Below, in pieces: positions 21,842 to 45,653 of a DNA stretch of 50,478 nucleotides. Below the pieces are notes generated by a model, which made no database searches, was not told the origin of the DNA, and was given only the letters and a program-made list of their open reading frames with translations. How positions within the stretch are numbered: position 1 is the first letter of the stretch; each line of letters opens with the position of its first letter. Source of the stretch: a virus (Duplodnaviria; Caudoviricetes); the IMG/VR virus record IMGVR_UViG_3300023176_000477, positions 1-50,478 of that record. The stretch is one strand, 5' to 3'. Made by a program: the position numbers and the translations under genes.

Positions 21842-21843
21842 TG

Positions 21844-22254
21844 TTAACCCTGTCGTCTATTAAGTAAATCTAAAATAATAGGTGATTTACTAACTTCATA
21901 CATAGCAGCAAGAGTAATATCTATACTTTGTGTGTTTGACTCAGGTATCATACCAGGACCTAAAGGTGCTCCTGATGTAGGAACTTCAGTAGGTCTTTCA
22001 GATGGTGCAAACACATTTGGTCTTTGTGGTTGTTGTTGTGATGTAGGTCTAGGTTGTATGTTACGTTGTGCAGGTAACGGAGCTGCTTTTTGTTGATTTA
22101 ATAATTGTTGTTGTTGACCATAAGGTAAACCAGGCATATCTCTTAAAGGTTGTTTTGAACTACCTGGACCACCATCAGTTCTATTTCTATTTTGTGTAGC
22201 TACTGGAGCTGGTTTGGCAGGTTGTCTATATCCACCTCGTCTATTTTTCGCCAT
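21844..22254 (-). CDS. Pro/Gln-rich basic protein downstream of portal
   Basis: RGGYRQP..RTDGGP..PYGQ..P(S/T)ERP.E motifs; AGGAG SD. Confidence 0.75.
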   Translation of the reverse strand: MAKNRRGGYRQPAKPAPVATQNRNRTDGGPGSSKQPLRDMPGLPYGQQQQLLNQQKAAPLPAQRNIQPRPTSQQQPQRPNVFAPSERPTEVPTSGAPLGPGMIPESNTQSIDITLAAMYEVSKSPIILDLLNRRQG

Positions 22255-22399
22255 CAAATTCTCCTGTTAATAAAATTATAATACCTGGTGCTGGATATAT
22301 GATTTGTTTAACATTATCACCCATAACATCAAGTTCATCAACAACACCATATTCATTGTATATAGTTTCCCAAAAAGTATCTTCGTAATATTCTTCCAT
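22241..22399 (-). CDS. 52-aa acidic protein (not in ORF track)
   Basis: MEEYYEDTFWETIYNEYGVVDELDVMGDNVKQIIYPAPGIIILLTGEFDGEK; TAATG-coupled to portal stop. Confidence 0.6.
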   Translation of the reverse strand: MEEYYEDTFWETIYNEYGVVDELDVMGDNVKQIIYPAPGIIILLTGEFDGEK

Positions 22400-24177
22400 T
22401 ACATACCACCAAATGCACCTGCAATTGAAGGTTGTCCACCCATCATTTGTTGTTGCATCATTTGTTGTTGTATCATCATTTCTTCTTCAGGTGTCATCTG
22501 AGGTTCTTGTGGAGTATAAAACTGTTTCATAATCTCTGTTATAGCAGTTGGATACTCGTAAATAGCAATAGCAGCCATTGTAGCTGCAGGGTCACCTTGT
22601 GCAGACCTAGCTAGTATAGAATCAAATAATACTTGTTCAGCTTTATTTTTACGTATACGTTCCTGTACTTTAGCTATATTCTCTAAACCATCAATGTTAT
22701 CTTGTAGTGTTTCTACGTCTATAACACCTGCTTGTAACAATTGCAACCCAGTTACAATTTTTTGTGGTTCATCAAATCCAGCCATAACACCATAGATACG
22801 TCTAGTTCTAAAGTCACCACCAATATCTTGTAATACATTATAGTTTTCACTAAATGCAGCACCATTAAGAAAACCAGCCATAGGTTTTTTAGATATGCCT
22901 TGTGAGTAAGATAATATTACATCCATCTCTAATCTCTTAGCATCCATCTGTACCATAGCTGATTTAATAACATCTCTATATTCTGAAATCATAAGTGACA
23001 TAGTGCTGTTTAATTCTGATAGTCCAGCACCAGTAACAAAACTATTAGGAGATTGGCTATCGTCAGTTACAGGATAACCACCTACCATACGCAATTGTCT
23101 TTCTAATCTATCTATCTGTTGAAACAATTGATACGGCATATTGTTCATTGGTTTAGAAACTTGTGTACCAGGAGCTAGATAATTAACCGCAAATCGACCT
23201 TTTCTATATTGTCCGGATTCTATCTCTCCTGATATGTTAGTTTCTGTAAACACACTGTCTTCCATAGCAATAGCTGACATAATGTTTATTTTTGCCATCA
23301 TTGCCATCAAACCTATTACGTGGTCGTATTGTCCTTTAAGCTGGTCAAAAGATACACGTTTCATAAATACAAATGGTGGAGTAGATAATACGTTAGGTAT
23401 AAAATCTAAAATCATATTACGTTCTGGGAATACAATGTATGTACCTCCCATGTCATAGTATTCAATAATTCTTACACCAGAGTATGTATTATCTTCCCAA
23501 GCTTGTTCTCTGTTATTTTCATAAGACAAAAATGGTGTAGCATTATCTTGTGCTTCTTCAGCATCTTCATCTTGTTTTAAAATTTGTTCTGCAAACTCTG
23601 GATAGATTTGTGCAAGTTTATATCTAGGTACACGTCTAATAACAGCCATTTCTCTTGGTTGTTGGTCAGGACCTAAGTTACCTACAAAAGTATCATAAGG
23701 GTCACGTAACTCTGCACTAGGATAAAAGAAACCATTAGTATCACGTTTAGTTGTAATAACCCAAGCACAGTAACCATAACCAGGTAACCATCTAGCTGCT
23801 TGTTGTAGTTGACCTAATAAGTTTTGTTTTTCATCATAGTTAGTAACAATACGTTCTAATTTTTCTGCACGTACTTTACTTCTAGTAGAATCATTTTCAT
23901 TAGGTACATCAACTCTAACTTGTGGTATACCTGAAATCTTTTGTGCAAGTCGGTCAATACCAGATTGCAACATATTAGGAGCTGGTAATAAATCAGCATC
24001 AGAGGTTTCCATTGTATTACCTAACAATGCTTTAATGCCATCTGCACCACCATTAAGAATAGCTTTTATTCTAGCTTTCTGTACTTGTCTTTCTTGTACT
24101 AACTTACCTGATGTAAGTTCAGCAGCGTTTCTAACTATCTCGTCATAAGTTTTAACATCTAAGTTTTCTATGCCCAT
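22399..24177 (-). CDS. Portal protein
   Basis: 592 aa directly after terminase; helical, Gln/Met-rich C-tail typical of podoviral portals. Confidence 0.85.
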   Translation of the reverse strand: MGIENLDVKTYDEIVRNAAELTSGKLVQERQVQKARIKAILNGGADGIKALLGNTMETSDADLLPAPNMLQSGIDRLAQKISGIPQVRVDVPNENDSTRSKVRAEKLERIVTNYDEKQNLLGQLQQAARWLPGYGYCAWVITTKRDTNGFFYPSAELRDPYDTFVGNLGPDQQPREMAVIRRVPRYKLAQIYPEFAEQILKQDEDAEEAQDNATPFLSYENNREQAWEDNTYSGVRIIEYYDMGGTYIVFPERNMILDFIPNVLSTPPFVFMKRVSFDQLKGQYDHVIGLMAMMAKINIMSAIAMEDSVFTETNISGEIESGQYRKGRFAVNYLAPGTQVSKPMNNMPYQLFQQIDRLERQLRMVGGYPVTDDSQSPNSFVTGAGLSELNSTMSLMISEYRDVIKSAMVQMDAKRLEMDVILSYSQGISKKPMAGFLNGAAFSENYNVLQDIGGDFRTRRIYGVMAGFDEPQKIVTGLQLLQAGVIDVETLQDNIDGLENIAKVQERIRKNKAEQVLFDSILARSAQGDPAATMAAIAIYEYPTAITEIMKQFYTPQEPQMTPEEEMMIQQQMMQQQMMGGQPSIAGAFGGM

Positions 24178-26081
24178 GGTGCTTCGTTTATCTCCGTCAT
24201 CTTATAATCTCCATAACTAGGATTATAATCTAATCCTATGTTGGCAGTATGCTCTTTTTGCATACGCCTAAAAACTTTCATTGGAAACCAACTAGCCATA
24301 ACTATGTCAGTCTTCTCTTTGTTTCGTTTAGAAACAGGTTTACCATCAAAGTATAACAGTTGTTGTCTGTATTTCTGTATTTTAGCATTAGATTCTCCAT
24401 CACCAACAGGTAGATGTATTCTTTTATCTTCAAACAAATCTGCCATAGCACCAACACCATACAATGGGTCATGTTTATTTTTACCTGTTAAATGACCTTG
24501 TACAGTTATACCAGTACGTAATGTAAATTCTTTTATTGCAGCATCTTGTCGTATAGCAGATTGAAATCCGTTTTCTTCTACTATCCAATGTCTACAATCG
24601 TACTCGTGTAACCATATTGCCATTTGGTCTAACGCAGCTCTAATACCACCACCACGTCTGTTTTCTAAATCAACTAAATACAACTCACCTCTGTATTGGT
24701 CTATACCCCAAAGTACAGATGCTTGGTAACCACTTGATGCAGGGTCTAGTCCAGCAACAAGATATAAGTTTTTATATACCTGCCCTAGTACTAAATCAGG
24801 TCGCATACATTGGTCAATCATGTTCATAGTAAATATTTGCGTACCTTCTACATATGCTTGATTAAAATAAACCATTTCAAATGTTTGCCTACCACCTGTA
24901 GATTCAGCAGAATGTAACCTAGACATTAACCATTTAAAAGTTCTTTTACCTGGCCATAACATACAATCAGTATGTTCTTCTTCTAAATGTTCTGGTATTT
25001 GACACTCTAATGCATGTGCAGTTTCTACTATGCTTGTAAAGTTATCTGATTCAAGTAAGTGGTTATATAAATCATCAGGGTGCTGTCTTGAACCAATTAC
25101 AACAACAGCAGTATGTTCCTCTTTACGACTAGATAATGTAGTAGTCCACCATTGTCTTGTACTTTCTCTAGCACCAGGTTGCATAGTAGTTTGGTGGTCT
25201 TCAATGTCGTCTGCAATAATTATGTCACAGTCACGTGATAGAATCTTACCACCCTTACCTACAGCAACCATAGTTGGTGATTTAATACCTGCAACTGTTC
25301 TAGTACCTACAGTAAATTGGTTTTGTGACCAGTTTTTACCTGACCTGTTATCTGGTTTAAATGATTGACCAGGTGGACAGAAATCTTCTCTAAGTTCTTC
25401 ATTAGTATCTAGTACGTCAAGTACAGCAGATAATGCGTTTTTAGCTATGTCTTCGTTACCACCTACCCACATAATACGTACGTTAGGGTTTTTACATATC
25501 TGATATACAGCAAAGTGTATTAATAACTCTGTCTTTCCATGTCGTGGGGGTGACAGTATCAATAATTCTTTACCGTGTTCTATAGAATCTATAATATTAT
25601 TAATCCAGTTAGTGTGAAAATCTGCGGTGTCATAGTGTTTTCCTAGTTCTGTTCTAAAGTATTTGTGTCGGAAGTTCGAAAAATTTTCTAATGCAGCTTC
25701 TGCTTCAGCTGATAGTTCCCAATCTTCTGCTGCTATTTCGTTTCTACTATCTATCTTGTAGGCAGCGAGCATGCGACTGACAGTAGCTGGGGTGCAGCCA
25801 AGGAGGGAAGCTGCGTTTGCTACTGTCATGTCGCCAGTTGCAACTTCTTCGGCTATACCTTCGCTTACGAAAGCTCGGTAATACTGCCCTCTGCGTACAG
25901 AAGCATAATCGCCTGTATCAGCATTATACTCTTTATTGATGGGCTTGGTGTCCACTTTGTCATTATGTCGCTTGTCACGTGCAAATTGACGCTTCTGGCA
26001 CGTTCCTGAACAGAATTTTGTTTGTCTACCTCGTAATTTCTTTCGACAACCTTCTGCTATACAGATTACATTCTTTGACAC
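24168..26081 (-). CDS. terL: Terminase large subunit with N-terminal Zn-finger and HTH extension
   Basis: Walker A PPRHGKT, Walker B IIADDIED, GLDPA nuclease motif, VEENGFQ, DIVMA. Confidence 0.93.
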   Translation of the reverse strand: MSKNVICIAEGCRKKLRGRQTKFCSGTCQKRQFARDKRHNDKVDTKPINKEYNADTGDYASVRRGQYYRAFVSEGIAEEVATGDMTVANAASLLGCTPATVSRMLAAYKIDSRNEIAAEDWELSAEAEAALENFSNFRHKYFRTELGKHYDTADFHTNWINNIIDSIEHGKELLILSPPRHGKTELLIHFAVYQICKNPNVRIMWVGGNEDIAKNALSAVLDVLDTNEELREDFCPPGQSFKPDNRSGKNWSQNQFTVGTRTVAGIKSPTMVAVGKGGKILSRDCDIIIADDIEDHQTTMQPGARESTRQWWTTTLSSRKEEHTAVVVIGSRQHPDDLYNHLLESDNFTSIVETAHALECQIPEHLEEEHTDCMLWPGKRTFKWLMSRLHSAESTGGRQTFEMVYFNQAYVEGTQIFTMNMIDQCMRPDLVLGQVYKNLYLVAGLDPASSGYQASVLWGIDQYRGELYLVDLENRRGGGIRAALDQMAIWLHEYDCRHWIVEENGFQSAIRQDAAIKEFTLRTGITVQGHLTGKNKHDPLYGVGAMADLFEDKRIHLPVGDGESNAKIQKYRQQLLYFDGKPVSKRNKEKTDIVMASWFPMKVFRRMQKEHTANIGLDYNPSYGDYKMTEINEAPWA

Positions 26082-26118
26082 TATTAACTAACTTTCCGTA
26101 GATGTTTGTATAGTGAGA

Positions 26119-26124
26119 ATTATA
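26119..26124 (-). promoter_or_regulatory. Putative -10 element (TATAAT) for the terminase operon
   Basis: Consensus hexamer about 38 nt upstream of the GTG start; no clear -35. Confidence 0.4.
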
Positions 26125-26389
26125 TGCTATAGTCACATTAAATACAAACACTAAACAATAGTATTTTGTTACAGGTAAAGCGGTGACCGGGACATCAAAA
26201 GCTGCTCACAGGTAAAACTGTACACTAGAAAGACAAAGGCAGTACCCAAGGACATTAAAAAAGGTTTAGTCAGGACTGGTACATACATTGCCCGCTCCTG
26301 CCCAGAAAGGCAACTACTATAAGGCTTTTATCTGTACGAAAGATTACCAACATATTTTTTAGACCTTACGTTAATATATAGAACACCTT

Positions 26390-26587
26390 AGATTAACATT
26401 AGGTAGTCAAACTAACAGAAGTAAGCATAAATACTGCATACCTATACAGAATTTTATTCTGTATGCAGTATTATGCTTTCTAGTTCTGTAGTTTGACTCA
26501 GAATGCAGGCATTCTGTAGTTAAATGCAATACCCTACCGGTTACTTTAATTCATTGATATCTGCATTTAACTTACCTATGTTAATCT
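26390..26587. other. Four-way-junction inverted-repeat element (candidate origin, packaging site or structured RNA)
   Basis: Outer stem 26390-26405/26573-26587 encloses stems 26405-26498, 26499-26516 and 26518-26572. Confidence 0.7.
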
Positions 26588-26644
26588 GGATAGCTTATCA
26601 TCTTTAGTATGTTTGTTAGGTGTCCGACAAGTTGTATCTACTGC

Positions 26645-26673
26645 TTGCTTTAATGCTTCCGACACAATAAATT
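26645..26673 (+). promoter_or_regulatory. Putative sigma70-type early promoter
   Basis: TTGCTT-17nt-TAAATT; predicted start near 26680 coincides with the first hairpin. Confidence 0.4.
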
Positions 26674-26680
26674 ATCATAC

Positions 26681-26750
26681 TCTCACGTCTTTCTATAGTT
26701 CTTTAGAAATTCTTTATGAATTTCTCTAAAGAACAGAAAGGACAGTGAGA
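26681..26750 (+). promoter_or_regulatory. C-TTTAY-G loop hairpin 1
   Basis: agaaattc-TTTAT-gaatttct, extended by gttctttag/ctaaagaac and tctcac/gtgaga. Confidence 0.75.
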
Positions 26751-26945
26751 GATATGATTAATTGTTTATTGTGCGGTGAAGCATTCACAAGCAAGGGCAG
26801 TAGAATACATGACTTGTCATGGGACACTGCTAACAAAACATACAAGAAAGATGACAAAGGTATGCCGAAGGCATACGCTTTGGCTATCCACAGAAACTGT
26901 TATTGGGATAAATACAATGCAGAGAAAGAAAGTGTAGCACAATAG
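26745..26945 (+). CDS. Small CxxC...HxxC Zn-finger protein
   Basis: CLLC...IHRNC; AAAGGA SD. Confidence 0.65.
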   Translation: MRDMINCLLCGEAFTSKGSRIHDLSWDTANKTYKKDDKGMPKAYALAIHRNCYWDKYNAEKESVAQ

Positions 26946-26978
26946 TGCTACCTTTCTTCCGCATCTGGAAGTATTGAT

Positions 26979-27206
26979 ATGACCATTAATGGCGTAAATA
27001 TAGTACATTGCGGTTATTGTCAACACGAAGTAATGAGTGATGACAGATACCCAATATACTTACGAAGTAAGGGTGTGTCCATACCTTCTTATCTACACAA
27101 TAGTTGTGGTGTTAAGATAGATAACTTAGGCGAAAATGTATGGCATTTTCACAAGTTATCTTGGACATATCAAAAGAAACTAAACAAACAAGATACGTTA
27201 TTTTAA
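26979..27206 (+). CDS. Small CxxC...HxxC Zn-finger protein
   Basis: CGYC...YLHNSC. Confidence 0.65.
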   Translation: MTINGVNIVHCGYCQHEVMSDDRYPIYLRSKGVSIPSYLHNSCGVKIDNLGENVWHFHKLSWTYQKKLNKQDTLF

Positions 27207-27217
27207 GAAAGGAAATT

Positions 27218-27430
27218 ATGAATTACGTAAACGTTGAAAAACTAAATGAAGCAATCGCAGAGATTGGGAAGTATGTTACTAATGATACTATTGTAACAAT
27301 AGAAAAGGCATTAACACAAGGTATCCAAGATTGGTATGATAATCAAGCTAATGGATTAGCCGAAAGTGATACCAAAGCATTGGGTATAAAAGTAGTTGAT
27401 GAATATGCATTTGATGAAAGCCCATTCTAA
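27218..27430 (+). CDS. Hypothetical acidic protein (70 aa)
   Basis: AAAGGAAA SD precedes ATG 27218, in frame with the listed 27140 ORF. Confidence 0.7.
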   Translation: MNYVNVEKLNEAIAEIGKYVTNDTIVTIEKALTQGIQDWYDNQANGLAESDTKALGIKVVDEYAFDESPF

Positions 27431-27553
27431 AATTACGCACAATATGATGAGTGCCGACATGAATATGTTGGCATTCATCCAAATGGAATTAAGTCATGGA
27501 CATTTTGACCACTTAATAATTGGCGTATCTCTTATGATAATGGAAAAAATTGT

Positions 27554-27590
27554 GTCTTTCTTTTTTTCTTTACGAAAAATAAAGAAAGAC
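27554..27590 (+). promoter_or_regulatory. C-TTTAY-G loop hairpin 2
   Basis: gtctttctttttttc-TTTAC-gaaaaataaagaaagac, upstream of SD and ATG 27617. Confidence 0.75.
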
Positions 27591-27616
27591 TTTATATATA
27601 TAAAGGAAGGAAATAT

Positions 27617-27877
27617 ATGACTAAAGAATATGTGCCAGTAGATTGCGGTGTATGTCATACACCAATTGACGCATGGCGTGATAGAACATGGGCATCTGTG
27701 CCTATTGATGGTAACTTGGAAAAGATACCATTTTACTTACACATTAATTGCGTAAGAGAATTACATAGAAAATCTGCAGACTATGTAAAGAAAGAAACTA
27801 ATGCAGAAAACAATACTACAGATGCGAAAGGAACTGTATCAACTACTGCACCGGTAGAAGATACTGTATCTGTATAA
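27617..27877 (+). CDS. Small CxxC...HxxC Zn-finger protein
   Basis: CGVC...YLHINC; strong SD. Confidence 0.75.
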   Translation: MTKEYVPVDCGVCHTPIDAWRDRTWASVPIDGNLEKIPFYLHINCVRELHRKSADYVKKETNAENNTTDAKGTVSTTAPVEDTVSV

Positions 27878-28009
27878 CAAATACGGTGTATAGCTTGCAG
27901 TCTATAGATTATTCTATGGACTGCTGGGTATATTATACCAATAGTCTAGCTTCCGCACGGAATAAAGTAAAACATATTAAGTTGGCTAGACACGATAGAA
28001 AGGAATAAA

Positions 28010-28369
28010 ATGCGACAATATACAGACAGTGCAGATGCTATCAAAGCATATGCAGAGGAAGTTAACTTTGACTTTACAAATGTAAAGGTTGAGGAACTAA
28101 CCGAAGGCGAAAATAATGAGAGAGGTGGATTAAAACTTGCGTTTAAAAACTACCAAGGTGACGACATGGAAGTAACTGTTATACATACATGGTTTGATAC
28201 CTTTGCTGTTACATTTTGGACAGAAGAAAAAGGTAGTGAAACTATGCAAGATATATATTTCCCAGAATTAATGGAACTATTCAAGGGTTTAAAAGTTGCT
28301 TTAACCGGAGTAACAAAAGATGAATGGAATAAAATTCTAAATCACCAAAGTCAATTGGAGGAAGAATAA
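28010..28369 (+). CDS. Hypothetical protein
   Basis: AAAGGA SD; TAATG-coupled end. Confidence 0.8.
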   Translation: MRQYTDSADAIKAYAEEVNFDFTNVKVEELTEGENNERGGLKLAFKNYQGDDMEVTVIHTWFDTFAVTFWTEEKGSETMQDIYFPELMELFKGLKVALTGVTKDEWNKILNHQSQLEEE

Positions 28370-28518
28370 TGGCTAAGAAATATAAAATATATTTTATAGG
28401 CGAACGTACATACACAGCATCAAGTGAAGACCAAGCTATACGTATGGCGGAAACACACCTAGAAAATCTACCACCACAATTTAAATTAGATATAGGAGGT
28501 GTACGTAGTGAAGACTAA
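28369..28518 (+). CDS. 49-aa hypothetical protein (not in ORF track)
   Basis: MAKKYKIYFIGERTYTASSEDQAIRMAETHLENLPPQFKLDIGGVRSED; GGAGG SD. Confidence 0.65.
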   Translation: MAKKYKIYFIGERTYTASSEDQAIRMAETHLENLPPQFKLDIGGVRSED

Positions 28519-28624
28519 TAAAGAACATTCAATGTATCCAAGCTATATATATTGGAAAGAAAATGAACGTACAATTAAGGATAGAATAAAGGTAAGATTT
28601 GAATTGGATTACGATTTAAAATGA
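28508..28624 (+). CDS. 38-aa hypothetical protein (not in ORF track)
   Basis: GTG start after AGGAGGT; ATGA overlap with the next ORF. Confidence 0.45.
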   Translation: MKTNKEHSMYPSYIYWKENERTIKDRIKVRFELDYDLK

Positions 28625-28728
28625 GTAGCCCAACTGGACAACCTTACCCACAATGTTACAAATGTTTAGAATACACAGAGTATCCATTAGAAGAAGACGA
28701 ACTTTGTTTTAATTGTAACGTTATCTAA
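28621..28728 (+). CDS. 35-aa CxxC...CxxC Zn-ribbon microprotein (not in ORF track)
   Basis: MSSPTGQPYPQCYKCLEYTEYPLEEDELCFNCNVI. Confidence 0.55.
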   Translation: MSSPTGQPYPQCYKCLEYTEYPLEEDELCFNCNVI

Positions 28729-28741
28729 ATGAATACTTGGC

Positions 28742-28778
28742 GTTCTTTTCTTTTTCTTTATGGAAAATAGAAAAGAAC
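28742..28778 (+). promoter_or_regulatory. C-TTTAY-G loop hairpin 3
   Basis: gttcttttctttttc-TTTAT-ggaaaatagaaaagaac, upstream of ATG 28807. Confidence 0.75.
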
Positions 28779-28806
28779 TTATTATTAATTATAAGAAAGG
28801 GAATAT

Positions 28807-29010
28807 ATGGATATTGATGACAAGCTAGATAATCTAACTAATACACAGTTACGTACTGTTATTAAGTGGACACTAGCAGATACACATAATGCAGCTAAAA
28901 ATTACTCAGGACTTGATGAGAGAGTCAAGGGTTGGTGTGCAATGCTTAATGAAGCTATTGAATATCAAATTGATAAAGCTGTTAATAAAAATAATAGAGA
29001 GGAAGAATAA
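28807..29010 (+). CDS. Hypothetical protein
   Basis: AAAGGGA SD; coupled stop/start. Confidence 0.75.
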   Translation: MDIDDKLDNLTNTQLRTVIKWTLADTHNAAKNYSGLDERVKGWCAMLNEAIEYQIDKAVNKNNREEE

Positions 29011-29276
29011 TGAGTACTAAAGAAATATTAGAACACGTTAAACAATTATCTATGCGTATAAATGTGTTAGCTGATATGCAGATGTTAGTTATGGAAGAAT
29101 TGGGTGATAAAAATCCAAGGTTTCAAACAAAAGCTATAGCAAAAATATTATCGCACGATGAACTTAGAGAAGACTTTACTGAGTTTGTACAAACTGAAAA
29201 AGGTATGTCAGATAATGTAAAACTATTTATGCAAGATATAAATGAGATGATTAAAGATATAAGAGAGGAAGAATAA
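29010..29276 (+). CDS. Hypothetical protein
   Basis: GAGG SD; coupled stop/start. Confidence 0.75.
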   Translation: MSTKEILEHVKQLSMRINVLADMQMLVMEELGDKNPRFQTKAIAKILSHDELREDFTEFVQTEKGMSDNVKLFMQDINEMIKDIREEE

Positions 29277-29860
29277 TGCCTAACATATGTAGAAATAGCG
29301 TTGAAATTACAGGTGATACAAAAGATATTACTAAATTTTTAAATACTATTACAAAGAAAGATGATAATGGTGAGTACTATTACAGCTTCACAGAGGCTAG
29401 TCCTATGCCAAAAGAATTACAAAACTTACACCAAGGTTTAAGAACTATTGATGGTGTTAGATGTAACGTATGGTATGAAGATGATGATGGTGCTAGGCCA
29501 ATGCTTGATATAACTAAAGATGAATTGATAGATAAGTATGGTACATATGAACCAATTAGTTGGCAGTATGACTACTGGGGTACTAAATGGGGTGATATGT
29601 CAACACAATTAGTATCAGATACAACAATTGATGGTAAAAGAACTGTGCAATTTTGGTTTGAATCTGCATGGGGACAACCATTTATATTATTACATGACAT
29701 ATGTACTAAGTTTAGTTTAACTATGAAAAATACATATGACATTGAGTTTGAAGAAGAACTTAAAACAGATACGTATCCTATAGAAAACGCAGAAGAAATG
29801 TTTAATGAATACAGAAATAGTATGCGTGATATGAGAAGTAGCGTACGTGATGTTGTATAA
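29276..29860 (+). CDS. DUF1281/YubB ferredoxin-like domain protein
   Basis: MPNxCxN.V.I.G, PMP, W...WGTKWG, FESAW motifs. Confidence 0.75.
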   Translation: MPNICRNSVEITGDTKDITKFLNTITKKDDNGEYYYSFTEASPMPKELQNLHQGLRTIDGVRCNVWYEDDDGARPMLDITKDELIDKYGTYEPISWQYDYWGTKWGDMSTQLVSDTTIDGKRTVQFWFESAWGQPFILLHDICTKFSLTMKNTYDIEFEEELKTDTYPIENAEEMFNEYRNSMRDMRSSVRDVV

Positions 29861-30080
29861 AGAAAACTTAATAGTACAATATGCACACTGCGGTGAATGT
29901 TTACAATCTAAACCACCACATTATTCGCCAATGGAATGGCAAGATATATCAGTAGGTTTAGTTGAAGATATGCAACACTTACAAATATGGTGTAATAGAC
30001 ATGATGCTGAAGTTGCTTTGTTAGCTTTAGCAAGCAAAGTTACACCAGATATGCAGTGTGATTGTAGTGAACATGATTAA
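29847..30080 (+). CDS. Small Cys/His-rich protein
   Basis: HCGECL...QIWCNRHD. Confidence 0.65.
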   Translation: MMLYKENLIVQYAHCGECLQSKPPHYSPMEWQDISVGLVEDMQHLQIWCNRHDAEVALLALASKVTPDMQCDCSEHD

Positions 30081-30332
30081 AGTCAATGCAGCAATACTGT
30101 AATTGAAACGCAGAGCTATTTACATTGTTGACTTCCCCTTTGTCAACCGATAGACCATAATGTAGATAGCTTGTAGCACATAGGTAGTAACTCAATTTCC
30201 AACTTCTACTTGTGTGTTACAAGCTATCTATGAATGTTTTAGAAACGATGTAATATCTACAACTACAATTCATAGATGCAAAGCTAGTTATGTGTATTCA
30301 TGCCCAGTCTAAACAACATAATTAGCGTCTAT

Positions 30333-30373
30333 GTATGTAAGCCTTTCTCTTTATGAGCCAAAGGCTTACATAC
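30333..30373 (+). promoter_or_regulatory. C-TTTAY-G loop hairpin 4
   Basis: gtatgtaagcctttctc-TTTAT-gag(cc)aaaggcttacatac, upstream of ATG 30396. Confidence 0.8.
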
Positions 30374-30395
30374 TATAAAAAAAGAAAGGAGATAT

Positions 30396-30866
30396 ATGCC
30401 ATCAGGTGATTACTTAGAAGTACACGAACAAGATGACATTGAGTTCATGGTTACTCTTACATATTTAGATATGCCAGGAGCACCAAAAGAACATAATGCT
30501 AGAACTGTACGTGTGTTGTTAAAAGCCAAAGATATAATTCAAGCTGTAACTATGGCTACAACAATTGACATGGTAAACAAAGCAGAAATGATGACCGATT
30601 TTATCGGTTCACATCCATCGCTAATAAATAAACAAGTATTTACTAGAGATGAGATAAATAATCTAAGGCAGCAAGCTATAGATAATGGTGTATTTGCTAG
30701 CTGGCTAATGCATCCAGCATCTGCAATACAAGTTGTTCAATATGATAAGAGTCAAGAAATGAATGATATCGTATTGAATGACGTAATGGAACATGCTTCT
30801 CACTTGGGTGACCAAGCTGAGGAGTTCTTAAAAGATATAGACGAAGGAAAGGAAGGTACAAAATGA
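30396..30866 (+). CDS. Hypothetical protein preceding AAA+/VWA pair
   Basis: AAAGGAG SD; ATGA overlap with the ATPase. Confidence 0.8.
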   Translation: MPSGDYLEVHEQDDIEFMVTLTYLDMPGAPKEHNARTVRVLLKAKDIIQAVTMATTIDMVNKAEMMTDFIGSHPSLINKQVFTRDEINNLRQQAIDNGVFASWLMHPASAIQVVQYDKSQEMNDIVLNDVMEHASHLGDQAEEFLKDIDEGKEGTK

Positions 30867-31573
30867 ATTGTTGGGAATTACTTGACAATGTAATAAGTGT
30901 ATCAAATAGAATATTACTATATGGGCCACCAGGTACTGGTAAAACATATAGTGCTGTAAAGCAAAATCAACCTATAAATGCGTTTGGCGAACCAAATGTG
31001 TTTCAAATTACAATGACAGAAGATACTGCTTCTGCTAATTTAGAAGGCTTTTATAAACCAAGTAAAGATGGTGGCTTTCAATGGCATGACGGTATCGCTA
31101 TACAGGCATGGCGACATGGTGGTAGATTGGTAATCAATGAGATTGACCACGCATCACCAGACGCTATGACTTTTCTGCATGCAATTTTAGATGACCCAGA
31201 GATAGCAGGTATCACTCTTAACAATGATAAGAGAGAAACTGTTAGACCAGCAGATGGTTTTCAGGTTATCGCAACAACTAATAGTCCACCTGAGAGTTTA
31301 CCTTTGGCACTCAAAGATAGATTCCCAGTTAAAATTAATATGGATACAATACATCCAAAAGCTTTGGCTGTATTTCCTACTGAGTGGCATAAAGTTATTA
31401 ATGAAACTACATTAGTTGATGACCCAGAACAACGTGTATCTATACGTGCATGGAAAGAGTTCTTTATGCTTAAAGACCAAGACTTCAGTCAAGAAGTTGC
31501 AGCTAAACTTATATTTGCTGATAAATCAGAAGAAATTATCGATGCAATACTACTAGCTAAAGCTAATGACTAA
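30863..31573 (+). CDS. MoxR/CbbQ-like AAA+ ATPase
   Basis: GPPGTGKT, LVINEID, FQVIATTN, ALKDRF. Confidence 0.9.
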   Translation: MNCWELLDNVISVSNRILLYGPPGTGKTYSAVKQNQPINAFGEPNVFQITMTEDTASANLEGFYKPSKDGGFQWHDGIAIQAWRHGGRLVINEIDHASPDAMTFLHAILDDPEIAGITLNNDKRETVRPADGFQVIATTNSPPESLPLALKDRFPVKINMDTIHPKALAVFPTEWHKVINETTLVDDPEQRVSIRAWKEFFMLKDQDFSQEVAAKLIFADKSEEIIDAILLAKAND

Positions 31574-33002
31574 AGCATATCCATATCCAGAGATTGTAAC
31601 TGGAGAAGACTGGACTGTTTATGGTACTAGCGAATTTAATTCAACACCACGTACTGACAATGTCAATAACAAGATGGTTGTACCACTTGATAGAGAATGT
31701 GAGGCATGTGGTGTTAATCATAGTCGTATGGTACGTAGACATCAGTTAGGTCGTGCTAAATGGTCACCTAAAACATTAGGTAAGTTTGGTCCAGATGTAA
31801 GACAAGAAGCTGTAGAAATACTAGAACGTATGCGTATTGATTGGCTACTTGGTTATGCAGGTAGAGGTATAACAGACCCTTATGTATGCCAAGAGTTTAC
31901 AGATATGCAAGTACTTAAAGTAATCTATGAAGGTTCTATTGCAGAACTAATTACTTGTTTTCTTAATTTAGTTACATGGATTGATTCAAAACATCCACGT
32001 GCATATTATTCTACTAGTGCTAACTTAACTGGTAGAGCACAATGGTACTTAAGTGTACTAAGTAATTGTGCAGATGATATGCGTTTTACTGAGGCAAGAC
32101 GTATGGAATATCTATTTGTTTATCATCAAGTATATAAGTTTATGAGAAAGCTTATAGACGATAGACGAGCTGATTTACCTACGTTTGCTGCTGTAAAAAG
32201 ACAAGCAAAACTTTTGTCAATACTATTAGAAATGGATGAACGTCCAGATAAACAATATGTATTTAAACCTATGCCTAAGAAAGGTGAAGGTAGTGGCGAA
32301 AGTTCTGATGAATCTGAACAACAACAATCAGGTGGTTATGGTAATGGTTCTGCTAAAGACTTAGAAAAACGTATGAAACGTAAACTTATGGAAGACATGT
32401 CATACTATACAAGTTCTAGTATGGGTCAATGGGGTGAAATGAGAATACATGAACCACCATTGTCAGTTAATCTACAAGCTAGATTAAAGAATGGCAGAGA
32501 TTATAGACCACAAGATTATGGTTACAATCCTAAATACATTAATAGATATTGTATTGACAAGAAGATATTCAAACAAAGACAACGTGTCAAAGGTGGCACA
32601 ATATTGATTGACGCTTCTGGTTCAATGCGATTTGATGGTAAAGATATCTTAGATATTATGATGATATTACCTGCAGTTAACATTGCTATGTACAATGGTA
32701 GTGGTAACTGGGGTGACTTACGTATCATTGCTAAGAATGGACTACGTGTTAATGATGATTATTTAAACATACACTCTGGCAGAGGTAATGTTATAGATGG
32801 TCCAGCATTACGCTGGCTAGCTGAACAACCAGCAAGACGTATATGGGTTAGTGATATGAAAGTGTTTGGTAGAAACGATAGCAGTGTTGGTTACAATTTA
32901 CTTAGAGATTGTATAGACACATGTACTAAAGCACAGATAATTAACTTAAAAAACGTAGAGGAAGTAAAAGAACACGCATTAAAACTAAGCGTGCTAAACT
33001 AA
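31566..33002 (+). CDS. VWA (MIDAS) domain partner of the AAA+ ATPase
   Basis: ILIDASGSM, GNVIDG, IWVSD; Gly/Ser/Glu linker before the VWA region. Confidence 0.75.
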   Translation: MTKAYPYPEIVTGEDWTVYGTSEFNSTPRTDNVNNKMVVPLDRECEACGVNHSRMVRRHQLGRAKWSPKTLGKFGPDVRQEAVEILERMRIDWLLGYAGRGITDPYVCQEFTDMQVLKVIYEGSIAELITCFLNLVTWIDSKHPRAYYSTSANLTGRAQWYLSVLSNCADDMRFTEARRMEYLFVYHQVYKFMRKLIDDRRADLPTFAAVKRQAKLLSILLEMDERPDKQYVFKPMPKKGEGSGESSDESEQQQSGGYGNGSAKDLEKRMKRKLMEDMSYYTSSSMGQWGEMRIHEPPLSVNLQARLKNGRDYRPQDYGYNPKYINRYCIDKKIFKQRQRVKGGTILIDASGSMRFDGKDILDIMMILPAVNIAMYNGSGNWGDLRIIAKNGLRVNDDYLNIHSGRGNVIDGPALRWLAEQPARRIWVSDMKVFGRNDSSVGYNLLRDCIDTCTKAQIINLKNVEEVKEHALKLSVLN

Positions 33003-33158
33003 ATAGCAGGTAAGGTACTAGCAATAGTGACGTGTTCCTTTCCACGTAACCCTTACTAAGTAATGGAATAGAGTCGGAGGAGAACTCCGGACGAGGTTTT
33101 TCGCACATCTTGTGCAAGTCAATCCCTATAGTGAACACCATTACGCTATTTTTTTTTA
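33001..33158 (+). ncRNA. Structured ncRNA candidate ending in a U tract
   Basis: Closing stem aaatagc/gctattt, nested stems, GCAA tetraloop, T10 run. Confidence 0.55.
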
Positions 33159-33200
33159 TATAAAGTTTGACTAAATATCAATGAAAGTATAATGAATAGT

Positions 33201-33443
33201 ATGAATATAGATGATATGCTTTACGAAGCAGAAAATGGTAAAAGAAGTCCGATACTTGACAGGATAACTGAAGAAGCTGAACCTTTTTGGCATGGCTGCG
33301 AAGAACGTGTTAAGTCAGGACGCAACATAAAACCATATGTTGTTTCAAGATTATTGAAAGAACAATATGGTATCAAAATAAGTGAGAGTGCAGTGCGTAA
33401 TCACTTTGAAAACTTGGCGAATCTAGGTTCACAATATGAGTGA
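33201..33443 (+). CDS. Small protein with possible HTH, probably leaderless
   Basis: TATAAT-gaatagt-ATG; VSRLLKEQYGIKISESAVRNH. Confidence 0.7.
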   Translation: MNIDDMLYEAENGKRSPILDRITEEAEPFWHGCEERVKSGRNIKPYVVSRLLKEQYGIKISESAVRNHFENLANLGSQYE

Positions 33444-34494
33444 TAAAGATATTGATAAGCTATTTATAGAAGCTGAATCTAAATTAGTTCAAGAACTCAA
33501 AGCTGATAACCTTAAACTACTTAAGTCATTAGAAAAAGCTAAAAATAAAAAAGCTGATATGATTGAAGCAGTTTATGAAGCTGTATCTACTAACCTTCGT
33601 ACATGGGACAAACCAAATATCCCTAAACCTAAATTACATAAACGTAATAAGAACGAAGAAGTAGCTGTAGCTGTACTCTCAGATGTACAATTGGCGAAGG
33701 TAACGCCAGATTATAACACACAAGTAGCAGAAGAACGTGTAATTGAATATGCAAATAAGATAGTTGAATTGACAAATGTTCAACGTTCTGCACATCCAGT
33801 TAATAAATGCGTAGTCCTAGCTGCTGGTGATATCGTAGAAGGTGAGCTTATATTCCCAGGTCAAACACATTTGATTGATGCAAGTTTGTACAATCAAGTA
33901 ACAATAGATGGCCCAAGAATACTTACCAAATTCTTTGATACATTATTGGCGAACTTCCAAGAAGTAGAAGTACATTGGGTAATAGGTAATCATGGTTCAT
34001 TAGGTGGACGTGCAAGAAAAGATTATCACCCAGACTCTAACGCTGATAGAATGCTAGGCAAAATAATGGATATGGTATATGAAAAAGATAAACGAATATC
34101 ATTTGTTATTCCTGATAGTGAAGGCGATAATCATTGGTTTGATATTGCTGATTTGGGTAAGGGATGTAAATTCTTTGTATGGCATGGCGATAATGTAAGA
34201 GGACACAGCGGTTTTCCATGGTATGGCTTTGGTAAAAAGTTATTAGGATGGAAAGCACTAGCGTCTAGAGGTTTAATGCCTGACTTTGATTATGCTATTG
34301 CTGGACACTGGCATACACCTACAACTATGTATGTTAATGACATAAGATTGTGGGTAAATGGTAGTACTGAAAGTTACAATACATATGCATTAGAACAATT
34401 AGCGAGCATGGGAAGACCATGTCAATGGTTATTGTTTGCTAAACCTAATCATGGAGTAACTGCAGAATACCTTGTAAAATTGTCACATAAGTGA
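33436..34494 (+). CDS. Calcineurin-like metallophosphoesterase
   Basis: SDVQ, GDIVEG, GNHG, WHGD, GHWH, NGS motifs. Confidence 0.88.
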   Translation: MSDKDIDKLFIEAESKLVQELKADNLKLLKSLEKAKNKKADMIEAVYEAVSTNLRTWDKPNIPKPKLHKRNKNEEVAVAVLSDVQLAKVTPDYNTQVAEERVIEYANKIVELTNVQRSAHPVNKCVVLAAGDIVEGELIFPGQTHLIDASLYNQVTIDGPRILTKFFDTLLANFQEVEVHWVIGNHGSLGGRARKDYHPDSNADRMLGKIMDMVYEKDKRISFVIPDSEGDNHWFDIADLGKGCKFFVWHGDNVRGHSGFPWYGFGKKLLGWKALASRGLMPDFDYAIAGHWHTPTTMYVNDIRLWVNGSTESYNTYALEQLASMGRPCQWLLFAKPNHGVTAEYLVKLSHK

Positions 34495-34508
34495 CTATAA
34501 TGAATACT

Positions 34509-34679
34509 ATGACAAACATAGACACTAAGTCTAGTTGGGAGTTAACAGGCATAGAGTACAGTGGTTTAGGTGATAAGCCATACTTTATTCTGACCAACAT
34601 AAATGGCGAGTGCAAGCTTGTACCCATAGAAAAAGGGGTACATAACTTGCGAAGTTTATTAGACTTAGATAAAGAATAG
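34509..34679 (+). CDS. Small hypothetical protein, probably leaderless
   Basis: TTGTAA-18-TATAAT-gaatact-ATG. Confidence 0.6.
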   Translation: MTNIDTKSSWELTGIEYSGLGDKPYFILTNINGECKLVPIEKGVHNLRSLLDLDKE

Positions 34680-34681
34680 AA

Positions 34682-34718
34682 GTATTTGTTTTTCTCTTTA
34701 TGAGAAAAAAACAAATAC
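34682..34718 (+). promoter_or_regulatory. C-TTTAY-G loop hairpin 5
   Basis: gtatttgtttttctc-TTTAT-gagaaaaaaacaaatac, upstream of ATG 34732. Confidence 0.8.
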
Positions 34719-34731
34719 AGAAGGGAATGTT

Positions 34732-35298
34732 ATGACTAATAACGTTGACTTACTATCCCCATTTCCACAGGAGATAGTTAGGAAAGCACCAGCTGGTAAG
34801 TTTGGTGATTATGTTCCACACGCACACTACGTTGAGCGTTTAAGGGACAGTGGAGTTAAATACACATGGCAATGCGAACCTGTATATGGTACATACAATG
34901 GTGAAAAACGTATTGTCGGTGCTAAAGGTACTATAACAATTGATGGCATGGGTAGCTATGATGGCTTCGGTGACGTTGATACATTTAAGCTAGGTAATGC
35001 TAAGTTTAATGATGGTACTAATCTTAAAGATGCAGAGTCTGATGCATTTAAACGTGCATGTATGAGATTTGGTCTAGGCGTAGAGCTATGGTCAGGTTCA
35101 GTACAATCAGAAGAAGAAGCTACATCTTATGGAACTGATGGTTACACTCAAGAAATGGCTGACAAAGATGCCAAGGTTGAAGTAACTAAAGTAGATATGC
35201 GTAAAAAAGAGAACAAACCTACTAAGGAAGATGTTCAACGCATGAATGACATTATGGATAGTATCTTAGATACTGAAAATAATGAAGCACCATTCTAA
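34732..35298 (+). CDS. Rad52/Sak-like single-strand annealing recombinase
   Basis: L.SPFP..YV....ERL, KDAESDAFKRACMRFGLG signature. Confidence 0.85.
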   Translation: MTNNVDLLSPFPQEIVRKAPAGKFGDYVPHAHYVERLRDSGVKYTWQCEPVYGTYNGEKRIVGAKGTITIDGMGSYDGFGDVDTFKLGNAKFNDGTNLKDAESDAFKRACMRFGLGVELWSGSVQSEEEATSYGTDGYTQEMADKDAKVEVTKVDMRKKENKPTKEDVQRMNDIMDSILDTENNEAPF

Positions 35299-35840
35299 TG
35301 CAGGACTTAAACTTTATAGTAAATACTATACAGTCTATGACTGCATCAGTACAAAATAAAGAAACTCTAAACAAAATCATAGGTACTGCTAATCAATACG
35401 CAGTTACTATGAAGTTTCCTGCTGATAAAACAACATGGTCAGATAAACAATTAACAAAGTATTTCGATATGATTGAAAGACTTGTTGATATGCCTGTTGA
35501 GTATACACAAGATGAGTTTGATAGCTTATCAATACAAGAAAAACTATCAGCAGTTGGTATAGAGTCAGAAGATATCACACCAGGATTACAAGATTCTAGT
35601 GGAGTGATAGGAGGAATAGTAAATAAAATGGAACAACAAAATAAGTATAGAGATGACTTAAAATGTCCATATTGTGGAGAAATGGTTTATGATAATCGTA
35701 ACTCTAAAAGGTCAGATAAAAGTCCAGACTTTACATGTAGCACAAATGACCCTGCAAAATGCGGAGGACATAGTGGTAAGTGGCGTAAGTCTTGGTGGTT
35801 AGACAACTCAGATATACCTGAAGAATGGGGTATTAACTAA
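35298..35840 (+). CDS. Protein with C-terminal Zn ribbon
   Basis: CPYCG.MVYDNR..KSPDFTC..C. Confidence 0.75.
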   Translation: MQDLNFIVNTIQSMTASVQNKETLNKIIGTANQYAVTMKFPADKTTWSDKQLTKYFDMIERLVDMPVEYTQDEFDSLSIQEKLSAVGIESEDITPGLQDSSGVIGGIVNKMEQQNKYRDDLKCPYCGEMVYDNRNSKRSDKSPDFTCSTNDPAKCGGHSGKWRKSWWLDNSDIPEEWGIN

Positions 35841-36112
35841 TGATACCTGAATACTTTAGAGGCAGAGAAATACCTGCTTTTATTAAATCTAAAACACAGT
35901 TAGTTGCTTGGGCATTAACTGAGTTTATTGATGATGAACCAATTAGTAATTGGGAGTTTGTGGCAGAACTACATTGCCATAGGTTTGGTGGAATAATACA
36001 TAATCTTAGAGCAGAAGGTTATGAAATTACTACCTTACCTAGTAAGAAACGTGGGTTAGTACATTACTACTGTACTAAATTACCTACTAAGAAAGCTGCT
36101 ACCATTAGCTAA
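35840..36112 (+). CDS. Winged HTH DNA-binding protein
   Basis: PISNWE..RFGGIIHNLRAEGYEI.T pattern. Confidence 0.7.
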   Translation: MIPEYFRGREIPAFIKSKTQLVAWALTEFIDDEPISNWEFVAELHCHRFGGIIHNLRAEGYEITTLPSKKRGLVHYYCTKLPTKKAATIS

Positions 36113-36549
36113 TGATAGAAGTATTGGTCGGTTGTATGATACCCCTGTTGATTACAACCGATACATTACCAGAGTACAGGGACTGTATGGAAGTGGCTTC
36201 TAAAGTCGAGTATGTGTTAGAACATACAGACCTTGTACAAAGGTACTTTAAGGAGGACGACATCTTGCAGGCACTAAATGTAATTTACTGTGAAAGTTCA
36301 GGAAAACCTGATGCAGTAGGCAAGAACACAAATGGTACTGCAGATGTTGGACTCTGGCAATTTAATGATAATACATGGGCTTGGTTAAAACCTAAGCTTG
36401 ATATAATAAGTAATAGGACTAATCCAAAAGTATCTACAGCTGTAGCTAGTTGGTTAGTCTACAATGATGGATGGCATCATTGGAATAGTAGCAAGCACTG
36501 TTGGAAAGATTACAATAACAGATACTTGTATATGGAGGAAACTAATTAA
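36112..36549 (+). CDS. Lysozyme-like lytic transglycosylase (SLT/Rpf-like)
   Basis: CESSG.P.A, GLWQF...TW, GWHHW; hydrophobic N-terminus. Confidence 0.8.
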   Translation: MIEVLVGCMIPLLITTDTLPEYRDCMEVASKVEYVLEHTDLVQRYFKEDDILQALNVIYCESSGKPDAVGKNTNGTADVGLWQFNDNTWAWLKPKLDIISNRTNPKVSTAVASWLVYNDGWHHWNSSKHCWKDYNNRYLYMEETN

Positions 36550-36734
36550 TGAATGAGTATTATAAATCGTATACATCTAACAAATGGAACATATGGCGTA
36601 ACCAATTAGATTCAAATACGTATGATATTAGATGTAAAAATTGTCGTAAAAAATTTGAATCTGATTATATGTACACAGAGAGATGTGTATCTTGTGAACA
36701 GAAAATGTTTGACGAATATTTTGGAGAGGAATAA
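36549..36734 (+). CDS. Small Zn-ribbon protein
   Basis: CKNC...CVSC; GGAGG SD. Confidence 0.7.
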   Translation: MNEYYKSYTSNKWNIWRNQLDSNTYDIRCKNCRKKFESDYMYTERCVSCEQKMFDEYFGEE

Positions 36735-36977
36735 ATGGCGAAAATAGACATAAATAAAATAAATATATTTACACACCATAAGTATTTAAAAGTATGGGCT
36801 ACACAGTTTAATCAAGCATGTGGTAGTGATACATTTAAAGTACAACCTGATATGAAAAAATTAAGGTTTCTTATGGATAAGTTTGTAGCAGATTACAATT
36901 GGCATCTAGAACAATTAGAATCAGAGTTTCAACAAGATGCTCATGTAAAAGATTACAGACGTTTAGAAGAAGAATAA
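36735..36977 (+). CDS. Hypothetical protein
   Basis: GAGG SD; coupled end. Confidence 0.7.
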   Translation: MAKIDINKINIFTHHKYLKVWATQFNQACGSDTFKVQPDMKKLRFLMDKFVADYNWHLEQLESEFQQDAHVKDYRRLEEE

Positions 36978-37252
36978 TGGAAAGTTTATCACCAATAAGA
37001 GAAGAAGCTATGAAACGTGCAGGTGGTCGTTGTGAGTGGGCTTATTGTAATGATAACAAGTGGCTAGAGCTAGCACATATACAAGGCATAGGTATGGGTG
37101 GCAACAAAAAACGTAAGTATGATATTAATAATGTTGCCATACTATGTAAATGGCATCATGATATATATGATGGTAGGCAATCAAGTGGACATAGTAAAGC
37201 TATAAGAGATTTATTAAAAGGATTTCTAAAAAGAGAAAGTACTATAACTTAG
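36977..37252 (+). CDS. HNH endonuclease
   Basis: RAGGRCEWAYC..LELAHI..N.AILCKWHH; start at coupled ATG 36977. Confidence 0.8.
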   Translation: MESLSPIREEAMKRAGGRCEWAYCNDNKWLELAHIQGIGMGGNKKRKYDINNVAILCKWHHDIYDGRQSSGHSKAIRDLLKGFLKRESTIT

Positions 37253-37778
37253 TATTTTTATTTTTTTTATTTCTATCTTCCCATACTGGAAGGGTTGGTG
37301 AACTATTTAAACGTGTAATAGTATTACCTGCATTACTACCCCAAGGATTTACTGGTTTAACACCACCAGGAAGTAATCCATAGTTTATAGCATCTAATAC
37401 TTTGTAACCTTTAGCAATATTTTTAGCCCATTTTTTAGCAGTACCTTTGTAACCTTGAACAGTCATATCCCATGCTCTTTTAAGACCATCTTTATTTATA
37501 GTAGGAGATACACCAGGAATTATAGGTTTATTATCTTTTTGTTTAGGAAAAGAATATGTTTTATCACCTATAGATTGCATTAATTTAGCATCATTTTTTA
37601 ATTTAATACCACGATAAATGTTAGCTACATCAGCAGCAGTAAGTTGTTCTTTACCTTTAACACTAGCAAATGCTTTCTCAGCTAATGCATTGTGTTGTTT
37701 TACACGCCTTTTAAGTTCGTCTTTACCAAGACCAGCTTTACCTTCACCTACTAATTTATTGTAATTAGGACTTCCCAT
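37242..37778 (-). CDS. Basic hypothetical protein
   Basis: 178-aa ORF, TAATG-coupled. Confidence 0.7.
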   Translation of the reverse strand: MGSPNYNKLVGEGKAGLGKDELKRRVKQHNALAEKAFASVKGKEQLTAADVANIYRGIKLKNDAKLMQSIGDKTYSFPKQKDNKPIIPGVSPTINKDGLKRAWDMTVQGYKGTAKKWAKNIAKGYKVLDAINYGLLPGGVKPVNPWGSNAGNTITRLNSSPTLPVWEDRNKKNKNTKL

Positions 37779-42179: not shown

Positions 42180-42232
42180 TATATCTCCTGTTTTCTCGTT
42201 TAACTAAGTATAATGATAGTATATTACTAAAG

Positions 42233-42319: not shown

Positions 42320-42320
42320 A

Positions 42321-42524: not shown

Positions 42525-42531
42525 TATTCTC

Positions 42532-45651: not shown

Positions 45652-45653
45652 AG

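Follow-up and report, generated by a model that had tools for sequence, protein, structure and literature searches.

A family of early-gene hairpins with a conserved tip in an uncultured marine phage

Five hairpins in front of early genes

The virus record IMGVR_UViG_3300023176_000477, a single contig of 50,478 bases with 32.7% G+C that was analyzed in full and is referred to here as the window, carries in its early arm five hairpins, termed H1 to H5, that present the same tip, a TTTAT or TTTAC loop closed by a C-G pair, on stems of different sequence. All of them are on the sense strand of the early genes. They form a genuine family of hairpins that is conserved, restricted in strand and position, and under selection at its tip. 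They are listed below with their scores in bits from the covariance model described later in this section and their z values from RNA folding.

H1, 26681..26752, plus strand: inner 37-nucleotide (nt) module at 26698-26734, tip TTC-TTTAT-GAA, -28.7 kcal/mol, z -5.3
H2, 27554..27590, plus strand: 37 nt, tip TTC-TTTAC-GAA, AT bulge on the 3' arm, 45.5 bits, z -4.2
H3, 28742..28778, plus strand: 37 nt, tip TTC-TTTAT-GGA with one U.G pair, 45.7 bits, z -5.5
H4, 30333..30373, plus strand: 41 nt, tip CTC-TTTAT-GAG, CC bulge three pairs below the loop, 41.7 bits, z -7.7
H5, 34682..34718, plus strand: 37 nt, tip CTC-TTTAT-GAG, 46.8 bits, z -6.0

Each hairpin is 37-41 nt in size, four being exactly 37 nt, and combines a stem of 15-17 base pairs (bp) with the 5-nt loop and one 2-nt bulge in the 3' arm. 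The initial annotation had described hairpins at these five intergenic places, with varied stems that still pair and usually have a 2-nt excess on the 3' arm, close to a Shine-Dalgarno sequence and without the U tail of a terminator, and this description was borne out throughout. A mechanical hairpin scan recovered all five, which make up five of the seven plus-strand hairpins with at least 15 bp in the window; a purine-rich Shine-Dalgarno run begins 0-16 nt, and an ATG 13-28 nt, past the end of each hairpin; and no T-tract lies behind any of the five.

No base separates the Shine-Dalgarno run from the inner module of H1 or from H5. The outer helix of H1, in which 26681-26697 are paired with 26735-26752, takes in the run that belongs to the first early gene, AGAAAGGA (26735-26742), and the run behind H5, AGAAGGGAA, starts at the adjoining base 34719. 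H2 is followed after 26 nt by the ATG at 27617 of a gene for a CxxC protein of 86 amino acids (aa), and H4 is followed after 22 nt by the ATG at 30396 of the 156-aa gene that heads the AAA+ block. H3 starts 13 nt past the stop codon of a 35-codon CxxC open reading frame (ORF) at 28621-28728, with the ATG at 28807 lying 28 nt downstream, and H5 starts 2 nt past the stop codon of the ORF at 34491-34679 and precedes the ATG at 34732 of the gene for a single-strand annealing protein. The suggestion that each hairpin heads a gene block holds in part, as H3 and H5 directly follow the stop codons of upstream ORFs and the block at 33192 has no such hairpin. The 5' arms of H1-H5 are pyrimidine-rich, with CTTTCT-like words complementary to the AGAAAGG Shine-Dalgarno sequences of the phage, and the 3' arms are purine-rich and Shine-Dalgarno-like; at H1, the outer 5' arm pairs with the real Shine-Dalgarno sequence.

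The word CTTTAYG occurs 16 times on the plus strand and twice on the minus strand of the window, and it sits atop a stem of at least 9 bp five times on the plus strand and never on the minus strand. The number of CTTTAYG-tipped hairpins in 300 dinucleotide-preserving shuffles was 0.07 on average and 1 at most. Predicted folding energies for H1-H5 range from -11.8 to -28.7 kcal/mol (z -4.2 to -7.7), with none of 200 shuffles equally stable. A covariance model built from 13 family members scores H1-H5 at 37-47 bits, which are matches by construction because the model was trained on these very hairpins. When run on both strands of the window, the model found no sixth copy, given that the reverse strands of the hairpins themselves scored at most 20.5 bits and everything else at most 15.7 bits.

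Covariation of the stems and conservation of the tip

The 13 family members, which come from five genomes in two clades and comprise 12 distinct sequences, were aligned without gaps over 37 columns, and columns T14, C15, T16, T17, T18, A19 and G21 of this alignment are invariant. Pairing was tested on the ten pairs that every member has, of which seven lie at the base and three at the tip. Among the 12 distinct sequences, 98.3% of the cells are paired, compared with 71.4% after shuffling, and none of 500 shuffles reached 98.3%. Seven of the ten common pairs have changed on both sides, and sliding the partner columns as a control left 37-55% paired. In four orthologous pairs compared between the two clades, identity is 38/48 over the 12 tip columns vs. 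53/100 over the rest (Fisher p 0.002). The stems covary, the tip is invariant in the 12 distinct sequences and it is more conserved than the stems; the hairpin is therefore, as the initial annotation had supposed, a structure-plus-loop signal, one that is under selection and whose tip is conserved beyond the needs of folding. The 3' half exceeds the 5' half by two bases in every member, but the place of this excess varies: in the window it is a bulge that lies three to eight pairs beneath the loop, and in the second clade it forms a 1x3 internal loop under a CTC/GAG upper stem.

Related loci and the hairpins of other clades

Relatives were searched in two sets of loci (denoted L081 and so on), 80 anchored on the AAA+ gene and 80 anchored on the terminase gene, which share contigs and thus are not independent. 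In the AAA+-anchored set, 10 loci gave a total of 25 model matches at E<0.01, every one of them on the plus strand, which in these loci is the sense strand of the early genes. The terminase-anchored set gave 14 matches, which without exception lie on the sense strand of the early genes and upstream of the terminase gene, with none in a late arm. The initial annotation had seen none of these hairpins in the late arm, and the covariance scan of the window and its relatives agrees: matches are found only on the early sense strand, with no copy in the window beyond the five of the early arm and none in the late arms of the relatives.

In the closest relatives, L081 and L083, all five elements are present at the same junctions, with compensated stem changes at H1, H2 and H4; the H4 orthologue in L083, for instance, has two fully compensated pair changes. 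A second clade, L084-L091, whose AAA+ protein is 77-79% identical to that of the window, has members outside the training set at the H3, H4 and H5 junctions (20-47 bits), and their lower stems are quite different. The outer helix of H1 also buries the Shine-Dalgarno sequence in L081 (-36.3 kcal/mol) and L088 (-46.8 kcal/mol, with the AUG paired too), where the sequences are unrelated. Two smaller features were seen beside the hairpins of these loci. The C-terminus and the stop codon of the 35-codon ORF at 28621-28728, which has two CxxC pairs and falls below the 50-aa limit of the ORF list, are conserved in L081, L085 and L088, and a TTGGCGT- or ATGGCGT-like word is found 0-32 nt before the 5' base of H2, H3 and H4, and not of H1 or H5, in the window and in the same three loci.

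A total of 106 distinct stable hairpins were found 0-45 nt before a Shine-Dalgarno sequence with a start codon in the window and 80 loci. Orthologous genes retain the hairpin, and its loop differs from clade to clade, with tips such as C-TTAC-G in L094, C-TTAT-G in L106 and CTTTAT-AAA in L112. Pre-gene tips share a 6-mer in 28 of 97 pairs within a genome vs. 57 of 1229 pairs between genomes. A hairpin before the Shine-Dalgarno sequence is general in this phage group and the tip sequence is lineage-specific, and tips that are specific to a genome would fit a reader that travels with the genome. In the lineage of L112, L110 and L018, four to six pre-gene hairpins have their own fixed tip, CTTTAT-AAA-AAAAAG, which has TCTTTAT in common with the tip of the window but pairs differently.

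The early arm of the window also contains strong hairpins with other loops.

26926-26958: loop AATA
27446-27479: loop GAAT
27885-27940: loop TTAT

The first and the third of them precede the genes at 26979 and 28010, respectively, and orthologues of the hairpin at 26926-26958 precede the same Cys-rich gene in other clades.

Genomic setting

The window is organized in two arms of opposite orientation.

Late arm, 8576 to 26081, minus strand: includes the genes for the large terminase and the major head protein and a 1996-aa ORF
1996-aa ORF, 15851-21841, minus strand: in the virion arm, of no recognizable family
Early arm, 26754 to ~36977, plus strand: AAA+ ATPase, metallophosphatase, single-strand annealing protein and winged-helix protein

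Many of the remaining early-arm genes encode small Cys-rich proteins. The two ends of the window are colinear and not identical (2-7852 vs. 41621-50478, at 67-95% identity in blocks), which indicates a phage genome of ~41.6 kilobases (kb) with one of its ends present a second time in diverged form; the doubled end probably arose from two strains joined in assembly or from a hetero-concatemer. The source phage is an uncultured, marine member of a large marine group. Its terminase has more than 596 relatives in one viral collection and 967 protein clusters at E<=1e-20 in a large protein collection, several of them from ocean surveys. The terminase protein is at most 29% identical to those of cultured phages, none of which is close, and a megablast search with 10 kb against phage records returned no match.

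The 1996-aa protein has only nine homologue clusters, found down to 30% identity, and the Atlas clusters are unnamed. It matched nothing in Pfam, PHROGs or PDB sequences, either singly or as a 7-sequence profile, and the DxDxD motif is absent from it. The idea that it is a polymerase was set aside on sequence evidence, in which no polymerase signature is apparent.

The region was found in eight salt-marsh RNA libraries, four of which were examined, as contigs. Single contigs starting at 28743 and 30336 begin at most 3 nt from the 5' bases of H3 and H4 and were not counted as evidence; other contigs bridge H1, H2, H4 and H5. Contig depth is low at 27906-29108, which may reflect strain variation, and 129 and 117 bases at 32699-32829 and 36123-36241, respectively, are skipped in contigs of three of the four libraries, which may be due to strain deletions or to another cause. 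About 100 nt upstream of H4, 30162-30232 form a 26-bp stem without mismatch (G-U allowed) and with an 18-nt loop. All four libraries contain contigs in which this element has different flanks on both sides (loose ends at 30161/30162 and 30231), which indicates that it occurs in other contexts.

Candidate readers of the tip

Judged from homologue searches, two small Cys-rich proteins of the early arm are confined essentially to the clades with this tip; this association is confounded with relatedness, and the two proteins are leads, no more.

26754..26945, plus strand: product of the first early gene, which follows H1 directly; 63-aa protein of Cys/His zinc type, a candidate reader at most
36549..36734, plus strand: 61-aa protein that has two CxxC pairs, likewise a candidate reader at most

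The 63-aa protein is present in all six of the model-positive loci that cover the region, and elsewhere in only two loci at 35-37% identity; L086 has neither a model match nor a homologue of this protein. With tblastn at E<=1e-3, the 61-aa protein was found in eight model-positive loci and in no others, with one weak match in L096 (E 0.003). The ORFs at 27218-27430 and 28621-28728 were left out of these homologue-distribution counts. The 63-aa protein belongs to no Pfam or PHROG family, and a Foldseek search of its AlphaFold model (pLDDT 87) against PDB returned nothing at E<=0.001, the best E value being 0.56. An antisense or kissing RNA was also considered as a partner of the tip and rejected, as the window has 13 other CRTAAAG sites and none lies in a convincing hairpin loop.

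Possible functions of the hairpins

The fold, the covariation, the strand, the position and the extra conservation of the tip are established. Beyond them, we tentatively favor the view that the hairpin is an RNA leader or intercistronic operator whose tip, close to the ribosome-binding site, would be recognized by a factor specific to the lineage; its action as RNA, the protein nature of its reader and the direction of the effect are what we infer. We propose that a single RNA module is present five times in the early transcripts, on their sense strand: once in the leader that precedes the first early gene, and four times just before another cistron, in a leader or intercistronic position. 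From base to tip, the module comprises a lower stem of free sequence, two additional bases on the 3' side, which form either a bulge or part of a 1x3 internal loop, a short upper stem that ends in Y-T-C / G-R-R, and a pentaloop, UUUAY, with C-G as its closing pair. The sequence of its tip would be recognized by a trans-acting factor specific to this phage lineage, most likely a small phage protein. Because the module abuts the ribosome-binding site, its binding or cutting could set the translation or the stability, or both, of the next cistron. At H1, where the module caps a helix of 30-45 bp that buries the Shine-Dalgarno sequence, the first gene would start off, and the helix would have to be opened or cut. 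The geometry, in which H5 and H3 start 2 and 13 nt, respectively, after a stop codon and the Shine-Dalgarno run follows 0-16 nt after the hairpin, points to mRNA. A precedent is Com of phage Mu, a small zinc-finger protein described as binding a hairpin beside a structure that hides the start signals of mom (PMC6483171).

Several observations weigh against this proposal. The RNA libraries consist of contigs only, in which starts, ends, strand and level are not readable and DNA may be present. Some of the orthologous tips in L084-L091 drift (TTGAT, TTTTT and a 4-nt CTTAT form), and other clades show heterogeneous tips within one genome. The Shine-Dalgarno sequence is unpaired in the predicted fold at H2-H5, so a simple masking model works only at H1. 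Mismatches of the G.T type outnumber those of the A.C type on the sense strand by 28 to 12 before genes and by 52 to 26 in other inverted repeats, and this skew, equal in all early-arm inverted repeats, does not discriminate these hairpins. The 63-aa candidate has no family and no significant fold match, and its distribution is confounded with phylogeny. The proposal of the initial annotation that one factor coordinates the early arm is supported in part: the structure-plus-loop signal stands, but no reader was found, the window has pre-gene hairpins with other loops, and hairpins before Shine-Dalgarno sequences are general in the group.

The main rival, which we regard as unlikely, is RNA punctuation without a dedicated tip reader, in which the hairpins would be host RNase III-type sites or 5'/3' stabilizers that divide the early polycistronic RNA, and the shared tip would result from descent and folding preference. 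The leader and intercistronic positions before cistrons suit this explanation, as do the group-wide occurrence of 106 distinct pre-Shine-Dalgarno hairpins with many loops, the retention of the hairpin by orthologous genes while its loop changes, and the 30-45 bp helix of H1 in the window, L081 and L088. The stems of H2-H5, however, are only 15-17 bp and interrupted by the bulge, and the tip is invariant while the stems turn over and is specific to the genome. Bacterial RNase III is not known to read apical loops. Searches of Rfam add no ribozyme or other family at these junctions: window positions 26000-37300 gave nothing at the gathering threshold and only sub-threshold, miRNA-like noise, and 12 relatives (139,953 bases) gave no match.

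Less probable than such punctuation is an extension of the favored operator reading to the whole phage group, namely a post-transcriptional "tip code" by which each lineage would mark a subset of its early cistrons with its own tip. The reader of that tip would be a small zinc protein that evolves fast and whose gene lies behind the first hairpin; it would time the translation of the early genes, its own included, in a phage-borne RNA regulon whose reader and sites would co-evolve.

A signal at the level of DNA is improbable. Such a signal would be either a hairpin extruded from supercoiled DNA and read by a phage polymerase, as in phage N4, or a host-type promoter with TTTAYG as its -35 box within the palindrome, and both the N4-type and the sigma-70 readings fit poorly. 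The early promoters of N4 are likewise described as hairpins in which certain bases of the loop and stem are conserved and the stem is otherwise free to vary (PMC4496689), and the window encodes a 1996-aa virion-arm protein of uncharacterized fold. According to the same account, however, the N4 hairpin has a 5-7 bp stem, a 3-nt loop and a GC-rich heptamer centered at -11, as opposed to the 15-17 bp stems and AT-rich 5-nt loops found here, and the 1996-aa protein is without the DxDxD motif and without a match in Pfam, PHROGs or PDB sequences even when a profile is used. At H2, H3 and H4, TTTAYG is followed after 17 or 18 nt by a TAnnnT-like hexamer, an arrangement that resembles the TTTACW-N17-TAYWAT given for the early promoters of T4-type PeSLs (PMC4122927), but H1 and H5 have no -10-like hexamer. 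Transcription that began 8 nt past the hairpin, as the N4 ruler would have it, or ~35 nt past the loop would start within the Shine-Dalgarno sequence at H1 and H5 or downstream of it. With that sequence beginning at the next base there, the geometry is unfavorable to an N4-type start or a -10 box. Sigma-70-like sites are not enriched in the window either (49 found vs. 52.9 expected), and no positional -10/-35 signal exists upstream of 96 distinct pre-gene hairpins. A host-type promoter just upstream of the hairpins was suggested by an ATAAT-like hexamer seen by eye 8-12 nt before each stem and was dropped; upstream of the 96 distinct hairpins, TAnnnT rises only from ~4% to 8-9% at offsets 6-8, and no column is informative.

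Very improbable, finally, is the explanation that the hairpins are boundaries of recombination cassettes or a small selfish repeat at module junctions, spread by recombination like the PeSLs of T4-type phages and with little regulatory role. In its favor, the window, L081 and L083 differ in the genes they carry between H2 and H3, a homology break vs. L083 ends at 27551, 3 nt before H2, and H2 with its leader cross-matches H3 with its leader at 77.6%. Against it, most breakpoints lie away from the hairpins, the strand bias is strict, and elements at orthologous junctions in clades with fully diverged stems indicate long vertical retention rather than recent spread.

Detailed knowledge of early-gene control comes from just a few model phages. 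Should a phage protein prove to read the tip, the hairpins and that protein would make a compact pair of RNA tag and reader, and would show how early genes may be timed without a recognizable phage polymerase. If they are plain processing sites, they would be an ordinary relative of the arrangement in T7. With five sites, natural compensatory variants and two candidate readers, the tip-reader system is directly testable.

Comparison with known systems

A literature search for such a hairpin family turned up no paper, which is not proof of absence. The initial annotation had named four analogues, of which N4 hairpin promoters and lambda boxB fail in the defining features that were tested, and T7 RNase III sites and translational operators remain. 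Like the hairpins of the window, those of N4 lie upstream of early genes and combine conserved bases in the loop and closing pair with free stems, but the short hairpin, the reading of template-strand DNA and the three copies that are described for N4 (PMC4496689) were not found here, nor was a giant virion polymerase with a T7-like domain recognized at the level of sequence. The feature that defines a PeSL, a sigma-70-like promoter joined to a stem-loop, fits H2-H4 and does not fit H1 and H5, and hence does not describe the family.

The nut sites of lambda resemble the family in having a small leader hairpin, the loop of which is read by the phage protein N. The boxB hairpin of lambda, however, has a 5-bp stem with a GNRA-like purine pentaloop, unlike the pyrimidine-rich UUUAY on long stems found here, and the window has five sites that abut ribosome-binding sites, compared with two behind early promoters in lambda. 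The boxA-like motif YGCTCTTWA has no match in the window.

In Cluster K mycobacteriophages, SAS is a fixed 13-bp sequence at the ribosome site and ESAS has conserved arms with a variable spacer (PMC3203893). As described there, they resemble H1-H5 in being repeats of uniform orientation that directly precede the starts of some of the genes, in being conserved across subclusters and in having no known reader. The pattern of conservation is the opposite, with free arms and a fixed loop here, and the leaders behind H1-H5 share only the purine-rich Shine-Dalgarno sequence.

The early precursor RNA of T7 has five RNase III signals, and an ideal substrate is 22 bp (PMC3867540). The likeness to these signals, as they are presented in that source, lies in about five early hairpins in one orientation, one in the leader of the first gene and the rest intercistronic, each before a ribosome-binding site; those of the window indeed lie in leader or intercistronic positions, and all five end 13-28 nt before an ATG. 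The difference lies in the stems and in the tip. A signal of the T7 type spans about two helical turns, often with an internal loop; H1 has ~30 bp, and the other four stems, 15-17 bp long and each with a 2-nt bulge, do not reach two turns. The apical loop and closing pairs are invariant here, which RNase III is not known to require.

Com of phage Mu has a single target, compared with five hairpins here, and neither sequence nor fold similarity to Com was found, with no match to the Com family in Pfam among the 10 small early proteins scanned, the 63-aa protein included (the 61-aa protein was scanned against PHROGs only). The start signals at H2-H5 are not buried, the Shine-Dalgarno sequences there being unpaired, and the hidden start of the Com type is seen at H1, in three lineages. 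The likeness at H1 is as follows: in Mu, a small zinc-finger protein reads a loop motif beside a structure that hides a start, as described in PMC6483171, and in the window the helix of H1 buries the Shine-Dalgarno sequence with a gene for a 63-aa Cys/His protein behind it.

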